Below are positions 4,525 through 63,660 of a stretch of 64,000 nucleotides of DNA, piece by piece. The DNA is from Escherichia phage ES12, in the sequence record MN508614.1; one strand, written 5' to 3'. Numbering within the stretch: position 1 is the first letter of the stretch; the number at the start of each line of letters is the position of its first letter. Under the pieces are notes generated by a model that was given only the letters and a program-made list of their open reading frames with translations, had not been told where the DNA came from and did not search any database. Both the position numbers and the translations under genes were made by a program.

Positions 4525-6702
4525 TTAGGCCGCAAGGGCCTTCATAGTTTTAGCGATTTGAGAAACTTCATCATCACTTAAAGAGTTGCGATATCCGATG
4601 AAGTCGGAAACAATACGGAATTTCTTGGTAAACTCAGCAACCATTTTATCACTGTTTTTTGAAGCATTATGTGATAATTCATCAAAAAGATTAGTTACTG
4701 TCCAGATGTCATGACCGATGGTATCTTTTCCACCATTAAAATATACACCCTGTAATGAACTAACCATATTAGCGAGTCGTGTATATTCTTCAGAAACTTC
4801 ATCTACACTGAAGTACTTCATCATAAAATCTAACTCAGGATACTTGATAATTTTATCAATATATCGTTTAGCTGAACTTGAATAACCTACATACTTATCA
4901 TAATCTACATCATCAAAAGCATCTACATATAAATCACGCAAAGCTTCAAAAATACATTGGCACTGACCGAGTTCTTTTACCTTTTTCTGTAAAAGCGGAC
5001 GAATAACATAAAATTCATTAATGCCAATAAGATTAGCCATACGAATCAAAATATTCATAGATGGATGACAAAGCGATGTAGTACCATCCATAGAGAAAAT
5101 ATCAGAACGATGCATATACGCTACATAACCAGTAATTTCATCTGCTTCTGATGTGAGCGTAAATAATTCCTCTTTTTCCCAGCGTCCGTCTTTAATTTCA
5201 AACTTAAATGCTGTAGCAGCTTTAGGACGAGGAGCTTTACTTTTAACTACCTTTGGAATATAGCTTTTAACTAAAGCTTCAATTTCTGACAAATAATGAA
5301 TGTTAACTTCATCACTTTCAAACATCGCCATAATATCAGGAAGTAAATCAATCTGTGATTCTACTTCTGGGTTAATAAACAGAAGGCGTTCGTTATGATG
5401 AATATTCAAAGTGTTATTAAATTCACTATCATCTAACGCACGTGCTAATCCACGGACAATATTAACACGATTTTTAATATTATCAATAACGATATTAATT
5501 TTTGTTGCATTAATACCAAACAGACGATAACTTGATGCAACGGCCGAAGTTTCATGGCTTTGTTTAATTCGTTTCAGTCGAGGGTCAAGATTTACTTCAT
5601 ACACAACCCCCGCGTTGCATAACTTACTATCAGGTTCAAACATGCTTTGCATCTTTTTATATGACAGATTTTTAGTCGTAAATTTGACTGAATTACTAAT
5701 CATATAATCTCGAGCAGAATACCCCATCTTCATCAATTCACGATATGTGTGACGAGGAGATGTAGATTCTTTAAATCGTTTTACATCTTCATTAAATGCT
5801 TTCTCACTGAGTTCTTTAACTCGTTCAATGATATTTTTACGAGTGCGATCATCTAGTGAAAGAGCCTCGCGAGATGGAGCAATATCAAGTGAACCCATTG
5901 GAAATTTAATGTAATTCACTTCATTGCGAATGCTTAGCCAGTTACGGTCTCTAATAACACCATCGATAGGATAAACAATACCGCCATAGATAGCATATAA
6001 TCCACCACGATCTGGCCAGTATCTTTCTGGATTTACACCGTAATAGTCATCAAAATCCGGAAAATAATCAATTTCGCGGTCAAGACCATTAATGATAGCC
6101 AAATCTTTGAATGGTCGCATGATATAAGAAACTTCATAAGCAAAGTTTCTAAAGTCTTTTTCTTCAACTGGAACTACGATTTCAATACCAGTTTTATCAT
6201 TTGGACCCATTTCTTTTACGAATGTAGGTTTAATCTGTGGACCATCACCATCCATGTAAGCTACATAACCACGAATTTCACCTTTATGATACGAAGTAAT
6301 ACTAAACGTATCAGTATAACTAAACGGAGATTTAGAACCTAAACCAAATCCGCCAATGAAATCGTTAGATTCAGCCTTAGATGAACTGAAGTATGAATTA
6401 TACAGACCAGGAGAATTATCATCACCTTGAATATCAAAATCACTCATACCCGGACCAAAATCTCGACAAACAAATCGTGGGTCTAAACGTCCTGGAACTT
6501 GTATGATAAATTTTTCAGGATTTCCATTGAGAGCATGGGCATCAATCATGTTAGTAATCAATTCACGGACTACTGCGCGAATCTTGTTTGTATACAAATC
6601 AGATGATAGAATTTTAAATACTTTAGGAGATGCTGTGATGCTAAATGCTTTTGATTTAGAACCATTGCCAAGAATTGTTTCTTTTTCAGTGGTGATAATC
6701 AT
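4525..6702 (-). CDS. rIIA: rIIA protein (725 aa)
   Basis: 725 aa as T4 rIIA; between gene 39 and rIIB. Confidence 0.9.
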
Positions 6703-15998: not shown

Positions 15999-16601
15999 TT
16001 ATAGATTAAATCCTTCAAAATCAAGAGTATAGATAGTGTATGTTGAATACTTTTTATACTCGTATCTATCCGCAATTCTAAATACACTTCCAGCTGGTAT
16101 CATTACTTCTTGTTCATCTGAAACTAATTCCATATTACGATAGCGATGGCTATCCGGAAACTTAAAGTTTGGATTGTATTCTTTACAGCGTAGAGCTTTT
16201 ATAGCATACTCCTGGAAATTAAACACCATAGGAGCTTTGAATTCAAAAATAACTTGTGTGTTGTATTCTAATCCAGAAGCAAAATGTAGAGCTATATTTT
16301 TATCATATGAAGCTGATACTACTTTATCAAATGTAATAATATCAATTCCTTGATTTAACACCTGTTTAGTCTCAACTGGAACACCTCTCCAAAGAGGTTT
16401 ATCGTTTGGAACCAAACGAGATTTGACTATTTCATTTAACCAAGAATGATCGTCTGGTTTATTAGTAATACAATGAATTAAAAGTTCAATTTCAGATAAA
16501 TTAAATCCTTCAGAAAGTAATTCTTCACGAATAGAAGCACGCACCGATGCATCCATTGATTTGATTTTAAAATCTTTTAATTGCATTGCTGAATATTTCA
16601 T
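15999..16601 (-). CDS. modA: ADP-ribosyltransferase ModA (200 aa)
   Basis: 200 aa as T4 ModA; paired with 207-aa neighbour; R / STS-like / E pattern. Confidence 0.65.
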   Translation of the reverse strand: MKYSAMQLKDFKIKSMDASVRASIREELLSEGFNLSEIELLIHCITNKPDDHSWLNEIVKSRLVPNDKPLWRGVPVETKQVLNQGIDIITFDKVVSASYDKNIALHFASGLEYNTQVIFEFKAPMVFNFQEYAIKALRCKEYNPNFKFPDSHRYRNMELVSDEQEVMIPAGSVFRIADRYEYKKYSTYTIYTLDFEGFNL

Positions 16602-17221
16602 TCAACTACCTCAATATCATACACTTTAAATGTTCCAAATGAATCGTGTAATTTTTCTTTTGAAATAGAAGTTATTCTATACTTTCCAATTGGAATCATC
16701 CATTCTTGTTCACGCACAATCATCATTAAGTTATCAGTACGCTCTGAATCTAATCCATCAGTATCTTCATATGTATACTTAAATTCAGTATTAGGAGAAG
16801 AAAGTATAATATCGCTGATATGGTCAGAATAATTAAAAGCTTTATCAGTTTTTAAGCGAAATATTATTTCAGTGAAATACTCAACATAAGAAAAACCACA
16901 TGCTGTGTGCAAACTAGTAGTAAATGAATCTACTCTGTTCGTTGAAAACACTTCTCCGACTTGTAAATCTTTAATGAGTTCTTTTGTCGATTTTGATATA
17001 CCACGATATAGCTGATAAGGCGATTTAGTTAAATGCTTTTTAACGATTTTATTCAACTGCCGATGAAGAGCTTCATTCTTTTTGGCTTCTATACACTGCC
17101 AAAGAACTGACTGTTCAAAGTCAGTAAATTTTTCACAGACCTTTTTATACATATCATATTGAAAATCAACGCTTTCAGCTTTTATAGATAACTGTTCAAC
17201 ATCTGCAGGATTAATAATCAT
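16598..17221 (-). CDS. modB: ADP-ribosyltransferase ModB (207 aa)
   Basis: 207 aa as T4 ModB; YRG...STN...E motifs; overlaps modA start. Confidence 0.65.
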   Translation of the reverse strand: MIINPADVEQLSIKAESVDFQYDMYKKVCEKFTDFEQSVLWQCIEAKKNEALHRQLNKIVKKHLTKSPYQLYRGISKSTKELIKDLQVGEVFSTNRVDSFTTSLHTACGFSYVEYFTEIIFRLKTDKAFNYSDHISDIILSSPNTEFKYTYEDTDGLDSERTDNLMMIVREQEWMIPIGKYRITSISKEKLHDSFGTFKVYDIEVVE

Positions 17222-59909: not shown

Positions 59910-60122
59910 TCATTTTTGTCCTGTATTTACTTTATGCCGATGCACGGCCTTAACTTTATCAAGGTATTTTTCAAAATTTCGCAATCTAGTATAGTCTGCC
60001 GGAGATTGGTTGAGTGATACTTCTCGACGCAAAGCTGAAATGATATTTCCAACTTCCCTACGAATTTCATCTAATTGAAGAACAGTAAGATTGCGAAGTT
60101 GCTTTTCAGTTAATTGTAGCAT
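59910..60122 (-). CDS. hypothetical protein (70 aa), rI.1 position
   Basis: ORF track; late promoter box upstream. Confidence 0.45.
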
Positions 60123-60147
60123 ATATACCCCTTTAGTTAGATAAACC

Positions 60148-60155
60148 TATTTATA
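60148..60155 (-). promoter_or_regulatory. T4 late promoter box TATAAATA upstream of rI.1/rI
   Basis: plus-strand tatttata ~26 nt upstream of ATG at 60122, AAGGGG RBS between. Confidence 0.5.
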
Positions 60156-60164
60156 ACTTTTGCA

Positions 60165-60746
60165 CTAACCGAGCTTTTTAGTTAATTCATTCCAATGTTT
60201 TCTACACAAAGAAACATAAATTTCATCACCAATACAGATTTGATTACCTTCTTTAATTGGTGTTCCATCTTCCATTAATCGAGCTGTCATAATAGCTTTT
60301 TTACCACAATGACAAACTGCCTTTAGTTCAATAAGTTTATCTGCAATCGCCAAAAGTTCTTTAGAACCTTCAAATAATTTTCCAGCGAAATCAGTCCTTA
60401 GCCCATAAGCCATAACAGGAACATTATATGTATCAACAATTCGACTTAATTGATGCACCTGTTCAGTTTTTAAAAACTGAGCTTCATCTACAAATACACA
60501 ATGAATATCTTTTTGTGCTTCAGCCCATTTATAGAACTCGAAAATATCCATATCATCTGTAATAATATTCGCTTCCTGTTTAATTCCAATGCGAGAAACA
60601 ACTTCACAGACAGAATCGCGAGTATCAATAGCAGGCTTAAGAACTAATACACTCATTCCACGTTCTTTATAATTATGTGCAGCAGTCAAAAGAGAAGCAG
60701 ATTTTCCAGCATTCATTGCTGCATAAGTAAAAATTAAACTCGCCAT
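60165..60746 (-). CDS. tk: thymidine kinase (193 aa)
   Basis: P-loop AAMNAGKS near N-terminus, C-terminal zinc Cys pairs (CHCG, CRKH); 193 aa as T4 Tk. Confidence 0.9.
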   Translation of the reverse strand: MASLIFTYAAMNAGKSASLLTAAHNYKERGMSVLVLKPAIDTRDSVCEVVSRIGIKQEANIITDDMDIFEFYKWAEAQKDIHCVFVDEAQFLKTEQVHQLSRIVDTYNVPVMAYGLRTDFAGKLFEGSKELLAIADKLIELKAVCHCGKKAIMTARLMEDGTPIKEGNQICIGDEIYVSLCRKHWNELTKKLG

Positions 60747-60755
60747 ATCACCTTC

Positions 60756-60941
60756 TTAAAGCGTATTCACATAAGCTATTAATTCATTTTCTTTCTTATC
60801 AAACCGATCAGCAAATTCTTCCTGCTGTTCGGGAGATAGCGGGCCGTATTCATCATAAAAGGTGTTTGCTTCTGTATGCTCATCTAGAAGTTCATGGATA
60901 AGCTCAAACAATTTATCTTTTTGTTCTTTGCTTAGGCTCAC
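60756..60941 (-). CDS. hypothetical acidic protein (61 aa; GTG start)
   Basis: ORF track. Confidence 0.4.
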   Translation of the reverse strand: MSLSKEQKDKLFELIHELLDEHTEANTFYDEYGPLSPEQQEEFADRFDKKENELIAYVNTL

Positions 60942-61110
60942 AGTATGTCAATCCCCAAAAGTTTTAAAATGACTCGTTTCTGATTCATAACCGCTACGAT
61001 TGAATGACCGTTGGGGTCTTTTTGACCTGATCCAATTATAAATCCTTTTTGCGCAGAAAGTTCAATCAAAACATCAAGTTCACGTAATAATTGATATTTT
61101 AAATCATCAT

Positions 61111-61317
61111 TCATTTTGGTTTACCTTCTTTAACGAAATCAGGATAAGGATAAAATCCCGAATAAAATCCTTCACCTTTATGATTGATGCATCCTTTATT
61201 AGAACAATAGCACCAATAATCGAAATCACAAGCCATTTCATCGTTGCATAAAGCAAAAACAACCGGCCACTTACACTTTTCACAGTGGGCATTTTTAAGA
61301 ATATTAGTTTGGCTCAT
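61111..61317 (-). CDS. Cys-rich small protein (68 aa from internal ATG)
   Basis: ORF 61111..61338 trimmed; CEKCKW...CYCSNKGC. Confidence 0.4.
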   Translation of the reverse strand: MSQTNILKNAHCEKCKWPVVFALCNDEMACDFDYWCYCSNKGCINHKGEGFYSGFYPYPDFVKEGKPK

Positions 61318-61526
61318 AACCATGTAACCTTTAAGCAATATTCTTCTACATGTTGTTTACGACCTTTCTTATCAATAAAGGTATATTCAACGAATGTTCC
61401 AATGTAGTCTTTATCTACATCGTGTGGACTATTAATTGGACATTTAGTACGGCAAATGCGTTCCCATTGACGAATAATTACTGCTTTGTTTTTAGGATCA
61501 AACGGATGCGGGTAATGTACTTTCAT
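61314..61526 (-). CDS. hypothetical protein (70 aa)
   Basis: ORF track. Confidence 0.45.
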   Translation of the reverse strand: MKVHYPHPFDPKNKAVIIRQWERICRTKCPINSPHDVDKDYIGTFVEYTFIDKKGRKQHVEEYCLKVTWL

Positions 61527-61977
61527 AATCCACCACTATTAAATCAATATCAGGAGTAAACATGTCGATTAATTTAGAAACCTTATCCCAATCTCCGCCA
61601 GCAATACCACAACCTATGCGTGGAATGTAAATTACCGGTTTAAACAAAAGGGTTTCTGCCTGTAGATTTAATTCTATCATGCAGTTTACTAAAGCACCAT
61701 AATCAAGATTAGGACCTGGTTCGTATTGCGTATACAGGTTATAGCATATACCAAAACCATTAGGTTTATGTTTAAAAACAATAGACATATCGCCTAATTT
61801 ATCACGAGAACCGTACTCAGTAGTGGTTTTATCTATTTCTAAAATTTTGGGATAGGCTCTTGCTAATTGACCAGCTACACCACTGCCCATTGTATGAAAA
61901 CAGTTACACCCATGCGCAATAATATTACCTTCAAGAAAGAGGGCGACAATATCGCCCTTGATATATTTTACAATCAT
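61498..61977 (-). CDS. macro-domain protein (159 aa; putative ADP-ribose binding/hydrolase)
   Basis: Macro-like motifs NCFHTMGSGVAGQLA and IGCGIAGG. Confidence 0.55.
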   Translation of the reverse strand: MIVKYIKGDIVALFLEGNIIAHGCNCFHTMGSGVAGQLARAYPKILEIDKTTTEYGSRDKLGDMSIVFKHKPNGFGICYNLYTQYEPGPNLDYGALVNCMIELNLQAETLLFKPVIYIPRIGCGIAGGDWDKVSKLIDMFTPDIDLIVVDYESTLPASV

Positions 61978-62315
61978 CTAGTACTCAATCCTCGATTATA
62001 AGAATCTACCAAACGGTCAACCATTGAATGACAAGCGGCTTTATCTTTCTCCTCCGCAACTGAACATTCTAAGGTATTCCACTTTTTAGCATATCGTTTT
62101 AACAATGTATCATTTTTGTATCTGCTTGATTTATCTCTTTCTCCGTCTTTATATGCATATATTAATTTCTGCGCAAATTCAGCTTGACATGTTTTATTTT
62201 TCCCGCAATAATCCGCTGCAGTACGGTTTACATACTCTCTAATTTCAGTATATGATGTATCTGCTAACGCAGAAAATGAAATTAATCCTATACATAAAAC
62301 CAAAATTTTAGTCAT
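61974..62315 (-). CDS. secreted protein (113 aa) with signal peptide
   Basis: MTKILVLCIGLISFSALA signal peptide. Confidence 0.5.
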   Translation of the reverse strand: MTKILVLCIGLISFSALADTSYTEIREYVNRTAADYCGKNKTCQAEFAQKLIYAYKDGERDKSSRYKNDTLLKRYAKKWNTLECSVAEEKDKAACHSMVDRLVDSYNRGLSTR

Positions 62316-62853
62316 TTACTATTTCCAAAAGTTTATTATTTTTAAGGTAATTAGCCTTTTCTAGGACTTCAGAAGCATATTTAGAACCTGCTTTAACATT
62401 CCATCCCGAATTATAAGAGGATATTGCTTTTCTTATATCGCCCTTATGTATATTTAACCAATAAGAAAGTTCAATGTACGCCCAGGAAGCTGAATTGGAC
62501 CGTTTATTCAACATTCTTTTTATTTCAGCATCGGTCATATTATAACCAAGTTCCTTAACTCTTGCTCGCATAGTAGGCAAATAATTTTGGAACATTCCGT
62601 AGGCGTGATGCTTTGGTTTAGATTTTAAATTAACTCCGCCAGAGCTTTCTTGCCATAAAATGGCAGCCATTATATGACCTAATCCGCTCTTGTGGATATT
62701 TTTATGTGTTTTATATTTTCCATCCTTAGAAAATTGTTCCCCGAATTGATACGCGTAACGCATGTTATCGAGTTGGACATTACTGAAAGTATGCTCGGAG
62801 CTATGTGCCATCATTGAAATGGCCAATAGACCAGCGAGTAGTGCTTTTCTCAT
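62308..62853 (-). CDS. secreted lytic transglycosylase-like protein (181 aa)
   Basis: Signal peptide; Slt family-1 motifs LWQESS, YGMFQ, SSYNSGW. Confidence 0.55.
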   Translation of the reverse strand: MRKALLAGLLAISMMAHSSEHTFSNVQLDNMRYAYQFGEQFSKDGKYKTHKNIHKSGLGHIMAAILWQESSGGVNLKSKPKHHAYGMFQNYLPTMRARVKELGYNMTDAEIKRMLNKRSNSASWAYIELSYWLNIHKGDIRKAISSYNSGWNVKAGSKYASEVLEKANYLKNNKLLEIVND

Positions 62854-62860
62854 GTTTACC

Positions 62861-63322
62861 TCATTGAGTTTTAATTACTGCTTTAGAAGCCTTTCCTGGT
62901 AAACGACGACTGTTGATAATTGCCATCCTGCATTGAAGTGACGGGTTTTTGAACTTCTCATTAGGCTTACAAACTGTAAATCCAAGCCAAAGATTTCCAT
63001 CTGTGATTTCTAAACGTCCAGGACGATATTCAACCCCATCAATAAAATCCTCGTCAATGTCAGGACGCGGAGGCATACTCAGGAATTCATTAACTTCTAA
63101 AACATGGTCTTTTATTTTATGGAATAATTCAAAAACATATGTCTCATCAATCTCCCGTTGAATTGCACGATCAAGAAGATGCTGAGAATATTTTAGATGA
63201 AACGATGAGACTCCTGCTGCTTTTGATGCCTCACGAATCTCATTGTTAATTTGACGAAACTCCGACTCAAAGTGACGACGAAGCTTATTTCGACGGATAA
63301 AAACTTCTGTATTGATAGTCAT
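62861..63322 (-). CDS. regB: RegB-position endoribonuclease (153 aa)
   Basis: 153 aa as T4 RegB; position in tk-vs-regB block; TATAAT early promoter upstream. Confidence 0.6.
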   Translation of the reverse strand: MTINTEVFIRRNKLRRHFESEFRQINNEIREASKAAGVSSFHLKYSQHLLDRAIQREIDETYVFELFHKIKDHVLEVNEFLSMPPRPDIDEDFIDGVEYRPGRLEITDGNLWLGFTVCKPNEKFKNPSLQCRMAIINSRRLPGKASKAVIKTQ

Positions 63323-63349
63323 GTTATTCTCCTCTTAACTGATAGAAAA

Positions 63350-63379
63350 ATTATACCACAGTCAAGAGGAAAAGTAAAC
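63350..63379 (-). promoter_or_regulatory. T4-type early promoter (GTTTAC, 18-nt gap, TATAAT)
   Basis: attata 63350-63355, gtaaac 63374-63379. Confidence 0.55.
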
Positions 63380-63381
63380 AG

Positions 63382-63660
63382 TTATTCTTTAAATCTAATC
63401 AATTTATTCATAGACTTTGAAACTTCTGCACGAACCTCATGTAAGTTTTTAAGCTGTTCAAGACGCTGCTCATAGTAAGCAATTTCATCTTCTTCGAGAC
63501 AGTCCTGTGAATCTTCTTTAAGATAACGTGCATAGTCCTGAAAAGCTTTACGGACTACTTCCTGGAAGTCATCAAGACTTTGAATTTTCTTAGGAGCGGC
63601 AGATACACGACGAGGGGCAGTATAATACTCATAACCAAACCCTGCGCTTAATTGAGCCAT
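63382..63660 (-). CDS. small protein (92 aa from internal ATG), vs.3/vs.4 position
   Basis: ORF 63382..63702 trimmed to [13 protein letters not shown]; ATG overlaps upstream stop. Confidence 0.45.

Follow-up and report, generated by a model that had tools for sequence, protein, structure and literature searches.

A Gln-type macrodomain encoded by the tk.4 gene of Escherichia phage ES12 and its probable role against DarTG2

Described macrodomains and the tk.4 locus of ES12

The tk.4 gene of phage T4 has been described in the HIDEN-SEQ preprint of 2025 (10.1101/2025.11.20.689424), in which a T4 transposon library was screened on a DarTG2-expressing host and tk.4 was the single significant hit. 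A clean deletion of tk.4 sensitised T4 to DarTG2, and the gene was dispensable on plain K-12 and required only with DarTG2. The authors named it adfM (anti-DarT factor macrodomain) and proposed, from the phenotype, that its product removes ADP-ribose from DNA. The name AdfM was independently given to gp104 of phage PhiKZ (Cell Rep 2026, PMC13309987), which strips DarT2-made ADP-ribose off a TNTC oligonucleotide in vitro and protects against DarTG2, and whose N23A mutant has reduced activity. A similar stand-alone macrodomain of bacterial origin is SCO6735 of Streptomyces coelicolor (PDB 5E3B), in which the position of TARG1 Lys84 and DarG Lys80 is occupied by Gln85 (Hlousek-Kasun et al. 2022, PMC9411070). 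SCO6735 efficiently removes DarT-made thymidine ADP-ribose both in vitro and in cells; its Q85A mutant has lost all activity, Asn27 is believed to keep the glutamine in position, and the phosphate-loop residue Gly128 is needed as well (PMC9411070). SCO6735 and TARG1 hydrolyse N3-uracil ADP-ribose in RNA as well (PMC13036486). The CmdTAC paper was also checked for a link between macrodomains and T-even counter-defence, and macrodomains appear there solely in the reference list.

We analysed a 64,000-nucleotide stretch of the ES12 genome (hereafter the window), which contains the following coding sequence:

61498..61977, minus strand: tk.4/adfM-type coding sequence with an ATG start, encoding a 159-aa single-domain macrodomain of the ALC1/TARG1-like class (Gln-type)

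An earlier note on this DNA had described a 159-aa ORF of macrodomain type at these positions. The ORF lies exactly there, on the minus strand, and the two motifs that had been quoted from it were found in the product, NCFHTMGSGVAGQLA (residues 25-39) and IGCGIAGG (residues 121-128). In the 3.3 kb compared (60100-63400), ES12 was 100% identical to Escherichia phage ES26, and the best-matching phages of Tequatrovirus (T4-like) shared 98.6-99% identity with it. The genes are arranged as in T4, namely rI, rI.1, tk, small tk.x ORFs, tk.4, vs, vs.1 and regB, and a synteny comparison showed that the vs - tk.4 - tk position is conserved across five phage genera. The ES12 protein is homologous to T4 Tk.4 over its full length (58% identity over 155 aa, gap-free) and matched PHROG 335 with E=2e-71. 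Judged by homology and position, the ES12 ORF is the ortholog of T4 tk.4 (NP_049723, 155 aa), an assignment that the earlier note had not made, and represents an ES26-type allele. Both genes lie between vs and tk.3/tk and overlap vs by the same ATGA, and their products are of similar length (155 aa in T4 and 159 aa in ES12).

The T4 protein carries the product name 'phosphatase; contains A1pp phosphatase motif', and a near-identical protein of Shigella phage Sf22 has already been named 'macro domain-containing protein, pfam01661'. In the RefSeq records of Sf22 and T4, name-transfer errors are likely in the small neighbour ORFs of T4; the labels 'molybdopterin-guanine dinucleotide biosynthesis protein MobD' for MobD.4/MobD.5 and 'starvation-inducible transcriptional regulator' for rI.-1 are implausible. 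The Tk.4 counter-defence family is present in approximately 2,750 of 50,697 phage records. The gene, its macro domain and the anti-DarTG2 role in T4 are thus already described, and little is gained by confirming them: since the ES12 ORF is the ortholog of an annotated T4 gene that has been functionally characterised since 2025, it counts as known. What this analysis adds are the Gln-type classification, the distinction from the PhiKZ AdfM and the allele swap, which are modest refinements.

Fold, class and active site of ES12 Tk.4

Searching ES12 Tk.4 against Pfam gave a match to PF01661 (Macro) of 33.1 bits (E=6.2e-8; gathering score 22 bits) that covers profile positions 2-117 of 118, and this match is no chance resemblance. 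A structure was predicted with AlphaFold2 from an alignment of 63 homologs, from which the T4 sequence had been left out. The model was of high confidence (pLDDT 94.0, pTM 0.88) in all but the last nine residues and displayed the three-layer alpha/beta/alpha macro fold. A Foldseek search of the PDB with this model returned TARG1 at the top (E=1.9e-10, TM 0.72-0.81), ahead of BT1257, yeast Poa1p and the DarG macrodomains, and sequence searches of the PDB returned the same neighbours together with SCO6735. By structure and by sequence, the nearest neighbours all belong to the ALC1/TARG1-like macrodomains and stand well apart from the classes of MacroD, viral and PARG macrodomains. On the predicted structure and the sequence comparisons, ES12 Tk.4 is a macrodomain of the ALC1/TARG1-like class, which holds TARG1, DarG, Poa1p, SCO6735 and BT1257. 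The macrodomain call of the earlier note was therefore borne out by the Pfam profile, the predicted structure and the fold search; a non-macro fold, which the note had named as evidence against its reading, was not what the prediction returned.

The putative active site is formed by three segments:

61861..61914, minus strand: first active-site loop, residues 22-39, HGCNCFHTMGSGVAGQLA, with invariant H22, G23, N25 and C26 and a glycine-rich loop (distal ribose/diphosphate binding)
61726..61734, minus strand: Y-T-Q, residues 82-84, with Q84 at the position of TARG1 Lys84 / DarG Lys80, like Gln85 of SCO6735
61588..61623, minus strand: phosphate-binding loop, residues 119-130, PRIGCGIAGGDW, with A126 at the position of TARG1 Asp125 and invariant P119, G122, G124 and W130

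Conservation was read from two alignments, one of 63 and a later one of 122 sequences. In both, the residues H22, G23, N25, C26, G33, A35, D49, N80, Y82, Q84, P119, G122, G124 and W130 were invariant. Glutamine occupies position 84 in all database relatives (118 of 118), and also in T4 Tk.4, which has H22 and N25 as well, and in Bacteroides BT1257 (2AFC/2FG1), a protein without known function. A profile-to-TARG1 alignment placed Q84 on the first K of 'LITKK' (Lys84) and A126 on Asp125, and MAFFT L-INS-i agreed that Q84 corresponds to TARG1 Lys84. Compared with human TARG1/OARD1 (4J5S), the Lys84/Asp125 catalytic dyad is thus absent from ES12 Tk.4 and replaced by Q84/A126.

The equivalence of Q84 with SCO6735 Gln85 and DarG Lys80 was reached through the alignment on TARG1 K84 and the published structural alignment (PMC9411070). 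SCO6735 itself was aligned with ES12 Tk.4 over the phosphate loop only, and H22, N25 and G124 were mapped by motif. Read in this way, the residue set of the SCO6735 type (Gln at the Lys position, Asn27, His24 and Gly128) is matched by Q84, N25, H22 and G124, with H22 and N25 probably corresponding to His24 and Asn27 by motif position. The phosphate loop PRIGCGIAGGDW is nearly identical to PRIGCGLAGGTW of SCO6735 and PRIGCGLAGGKW of BT1257, the TARG1 loop being PRIGCGLDRLQW. The similarity between SCO6735 and ES12 Tk.4 was significant both with a single sequence (E=8.6e-8) and with a profile (E=8.6e-16). The two proteins have in common a single-domain ALC1-like architecture, a glutamine at the TARG1 K84/DarG K80 position, a first-loop His...Asn pair (by motif) and an almost identical PRIGCGxAGGxW loop. 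In contrast to the phage protein, SCO6735 is bacterial, is under DNA-damage control, also removes Glu-linked ADP-ribose from protein, and has a 181-residue chain, about 20 residues longer, with a longer 'mobile loop' that has been proposed as a DNA clamp. The beta-hairpin of residues 64-84, which may correspond to this mobile loop, is the most variable segment of ES12 Tk.4.

ES12 Tk.4 departs from DarG (M. tuberculosis 5M3I; T. aquaticus 5M31/5M3E) in several respects. It does not have the C-terminal DarT-binding domain of DarG, and the position of the catalytic Lys80 is Gln84. The NCBIfam model NF048014 (DarG equivalog) scored 27.8 bits, where its cut-off is 250, with the 159-aa protein matching model positions 2-142 of 338. 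No darT gene lies beside tk.4 in ES12, which is flanked by vs and a tk.3-like ORF. A homolog from Pelagimonas phthalicica (40% identity; 6001-6459 of the chromosome stretch inspected) is likewise a lone gene, located between peptidase M23 and tryptophan halogenase genes with no DarT nearby, which suggests that the bacterial members of the Tk.4 family are free-standing like SCO6735 and are not antitoxins.

PhiKZ gp104 is, like ES12 Tk.4, a phage-encoded stand-alone macrodomain with a conserved asparagine, and N25 of ES12 Tk.4 aligns with N23 of PhiKZ AdfM. It differs in belonging to a DarG-like subfamily with an FPTK lysine motif and in being imported into the phage nucleus. The pairwise similarity of the two proteins was marginal (BLASTP E=0.001 over 31 residues). 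When the family profile was compared by hhalign with the Lys-type gp104, the probability was 96%, and the gp104 lysine fell two residues off Q84 in a stretch of zero confidence; with MAFFT it was one residue off. We treated this offset of one to two residues as alignment wobble and did not count it against the equivalence of Q84. The single name AdfM thus covers two non-orthologous phage macrodomains, the Lys-type PhiKZ gp104 and the Gln-type T4 Tk.4 family, which probably use different chemistry. Given Gln84 in place of the catalytic lysine and the likeness to SCO6735, ES12 Tk.4 is best read as a stand-alone Gln-type hydrolase, and not as a DarG.

A divergent allele in a packed gene run

ES12 and T4 are closely similar on both sides of tk.4. 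The protein identities were 99% for Tk, 95.7% for Tk.3, 96.5% for Vs, 100% for Vs.1 and 99.3% for RegB, but only 58% for Tk.4. At the DNA level, identity fell to 40-60% only within about 61500-61900 and was 95-100% on both sides (61330-61480 and 61950-62400). Within the protein, residues 1-44 were 86% identical between ES12 and T4, whereas residues 45-79, comprising a helix and the beta-hairpin, were 40% identical and residues 131-155 were 24% identical, so that these two segments are largely replaced in the ES12 allele. The phosphate loop also differs, being GIAGGDW in ES12, which is the family consensus, and an atypical GIGKGNW in T4. The T4 allele is an outlier, only 50-58% identical to every other allele compared. 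The ES12 protein is 74% identical to the allele of Dhakavirus UGJNEcP4, whose flanking genes are merely 45-71% identical to those of ES12. Of the records in the phage collection, 318 have the ES26-type allele (at least 90% identity) and 224 the T4 type, with a further 159 at 80-90%. The localised divergence in tk.4, together with the closeness to the Dhakavirus allele, points to an exchange of tk.4, apparently as a cassette, by recombination among T-even lineages, perhaps under diversifying selection.

Two further features bear on the expression of the gene:

61974..61977, minus strand: ATGA overlap of the tk.4 start with the vs stop, read from the sequence and the same in T4, UGJNEcP4 and Marfa
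63350..63378, minus strand: candidate sigma-70-like promoter ahead of regB, TTTACT-17-TATAAT with an upstream TG (extended -10), from a consensus scan

The ATGA overlap suggests translational coupling of vs and tk.4. The genes upstream are also packed head to tail, with vs.1 and vs overlapping by 8 nt. At the place equivalent to the promoter candidate, just upstream of regB, fPS-90 carries the annotation 'predicted early promoter'; promoter-like sites overall were not enriched (12 found vs 15.2 expected from shuffles). From the gene packing and the sigma-70-like site upstream of regB, we tentatively infer that 63350..63378 may act as an early promoter for a regB-vs.1-vs-tk.4 transcript and that these genes may be co-expressed early. 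The gene just upstream of tk.4, vs (61974-62315; valyl-tRNA synthetase modifier), showed the strongest depletion of all T4 genes in minimal medium (10.1101/2025.11.20.689424), and the putatively coupled pair of vs and tk.4 thus has a conditional phenotype for each member.

Annotations around the start and the end of tk.4 vary. A G+C-rich hairpin of 8 bp at 61940-61958 (AGGGCGATATTGTCGCCCT) lies within codons 7-13 of tk.4 and is called a terminator in fPS-90, where the tk.4 coding sequence begins at Met30 and yields a truncated 130-aa protein. As a functional RNA element this hairpin was rejected, being broken in ZX13 and Marfa and folding no better than shuffled sequences (z = -1.0). The hairpin is probably incidental and the truncated tk.4 annotations are probably wrong. 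At the other end, the last 29 nt of tk.4 (61498-61526) are shared with the beginning of the tk.3-like ORF (DUF7202) that follows it, compared with only 4 nt in T4; part of this larger overlap comes from the C-terminus, which is four residues longer in the ES12 allele (pLDDT about 65). Further downstream, 60756-61338 on the minus strand holds three small ORFs of 61, 58 and 75 aa at the place of T4 tk.1/tk.2. Only the first resembles T4 Tk.2 (52%), the 75-aa ORF matches the Pfam family 'Phage zinc binding domain' (PF23895), and the 58-aa ORF gave no family match. This region is a second variable cassette, adjoining tk.

Proposed mechanism, alternatives and meaning

We consider it probable that ES12 Tk.4 is an early-made DNA ADP-ribosyl glycohydrolase of the SCO6735 type that defeats DarT2. 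The ORF, fold, class, active-site residues, synteny and orthology come from this analysis, and the anti-DarTG2 phenotype of T4, the hydrolysis of thymidine ADP-ribose by SCO6735 and the role of Gln85 come from published relatives. In the proposed mechanism, the stand-alone macrodomain would be produced early in infection from the tightly packed regB-vs.1-vs-tk.4 run. Host DarT2 would place ADP-ribose on thymidine N3 of single-stranded phage DNA and replication would be blocked; the macrodomain cleft of Tk.4 would then take up the ADP-ribose and the ribose-thymine bond would be cut, restoring the DNA and allowing replication to continue. The chemistry would be that of SCO6735 and not of DarG or TARG1, working without a catalytic lysine, with the invariant Q84, steadied by the invariant N25, orienting the distal ribose so that water can attack. 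By analogy, the 58%-identical ES12 allele would share the activity and target of the T4 allele. Since ADP-ribose-1''-phosphate is a substrate of Poa1p, and SCO6735 also removes ADP-ribose linked to Glu in protein and to uracil in RNA, DNA may not be the sole substrate. The earlier note had offered three functions, of which the countering of DarT-type toxins fits the genetics of the T4 ortholog (tk.4 knock-out gives DarTG2 sensitivity), and the reversal of ModA/ModB marks and the degradation of ADP-ribose-derived signals found no support here.

A different use of the same fold would be to neutralise DarT2 or another toxin chiefly by binding and blocking it, with hydrolysis of little account. 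There is precedent for such an activity, in that the dead Q85A mutant of SCO6735 remains an inhibitor of DarT in vitro, and a stronger one than DarG or TARG1 (PMC9411070), and AdfB of phage ICP1 acts purely through DarT binding; the fast, surface-concentrated divergence of tk.4 alleles would also fit co-evolution with a protein partner. However, none of the active-site residues varies in over 100 homologs from bacteria and phages of different genera, which argues for selection for catalysis, and the DarT-binding domain at the C-terminus of DarG is absent. We therefore regard binding as the chief activity of ES12 Tk.4 as unlikely.

Still less likely is a Poa1p-like small-molecule hydrolase that clears ADP-ribose-1''-phosphate or O-acetyl-ADP-ribose. 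Of the active-site residues probed in Poa1p (6lfs, 6lft, 6lfu), His23 is matched by H22; the residue aligned with Ser30, T29, is not conserved (71 of 122 sequences have T, the rest L, V, Q or M), and the position of Phe152 is A126 in ES12 Tk.4. No Tpt1/KptA-type source of ADP-ribose-1''-phosphate came up in those parts of the window that the analysis covered. The database labels 'A1pp phosphatase', 'phosphatase' and 'O-acetyl-ADP-ribose deacetylase' are transfers from the domain name, and the only known phenotype of the ortholog is specific to DarTG2 (10.1101/2025.11.20.689424).

It is very unlikely that ES12 Tk.4 destroys immune signals such as the cyclic ADP-ribose isomers of Thoeris, or removes ADP-ribose from RNA bases (uracil-ADP-ribose), instead of or besides acting on DNA, and no evidence connects the Tk.4 subfamily with Thoeris or any other signalling system. 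Macrodomains cut at the 1'' position, and we know of no TARG1-class enzyme that acts on cyclic ADP-ribose isomers. From genomic context, Iyer and colleagues assigned most phage Macro domains to low-molecular-weight ADP-ribose derivatives (PMC9503650), and the RNA activity of SCO6735 and TARG1 on uracil-ADP-ribose (PMC13036486) would favour an RNA target; the single available phenotype, however, concerns DarTG2, a DNA modifier (10.1101/2025.11.20.689424).

ModA and ModB are encoded in the same genome, as the earlier note had said, by adjacent ORFs (15999..16601 and 16598..17221) that match PHROG 832 'RNA polymerase ADP-ribosylase'. The residue modified by Alt, ModA and ModB is arginine, from which enzymes of the ARH/DraG type remove ADP-ribose; to our knowledge, the targets of TARG1-class macrodomains are acidic residues and nucleic-acid bases and not Arg-linked ADP-ribose, so the linkage would be the wrong chemistry for this class. 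That ES12 Tk.4 erases or modulates the marks which the phage itself, through Alt, ModA and ModB, places on RNA polymerase, S1 or other host proteins is scarcely credible, for although both gene sets occur in the 64-kb window and in early-gene regions, tk.4 is unlinked to modA/modB, which lie about 45 kb away from it within the window, and T4 tk.4 is needed only with DarTG2 and dispensable on plain K-12 (10.1101/2025.11.20.689424).

The divergence of the alleles also allows the conjecture, which we hold to be rather unlikely, that tk.4 is a polymorphic counter-defence locus at which T-even macrodomain cassettes are swapped under differing host ADP-ribosylating toxins, so that the ES26-type and T4-type alleles neutralise different things. 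If this were true, the alleles may differ by the DarT2 variant that they bind directly, or by other base- or RNA-linked ADP-ribose marks, and tk.4 would be no fixed housekeeping eraser.

The T-even AdfM is a Gln-type stand-alone macrodomain like SCO6735 and BT1257, and no Lys-type 'orphan DarG' like the AdfM of PhiKZ. Among T4-like phages, at least two strongly divergent tk.4 alleles occur at comparable frequency, and the allele tested in T4 is the atypical one, which calls for caution in extending the T4 results to ES26-type phages. Tk.4 probably helps to decide whether T4-like therapeutic and model phages grow on hosts that carry DarTG2.
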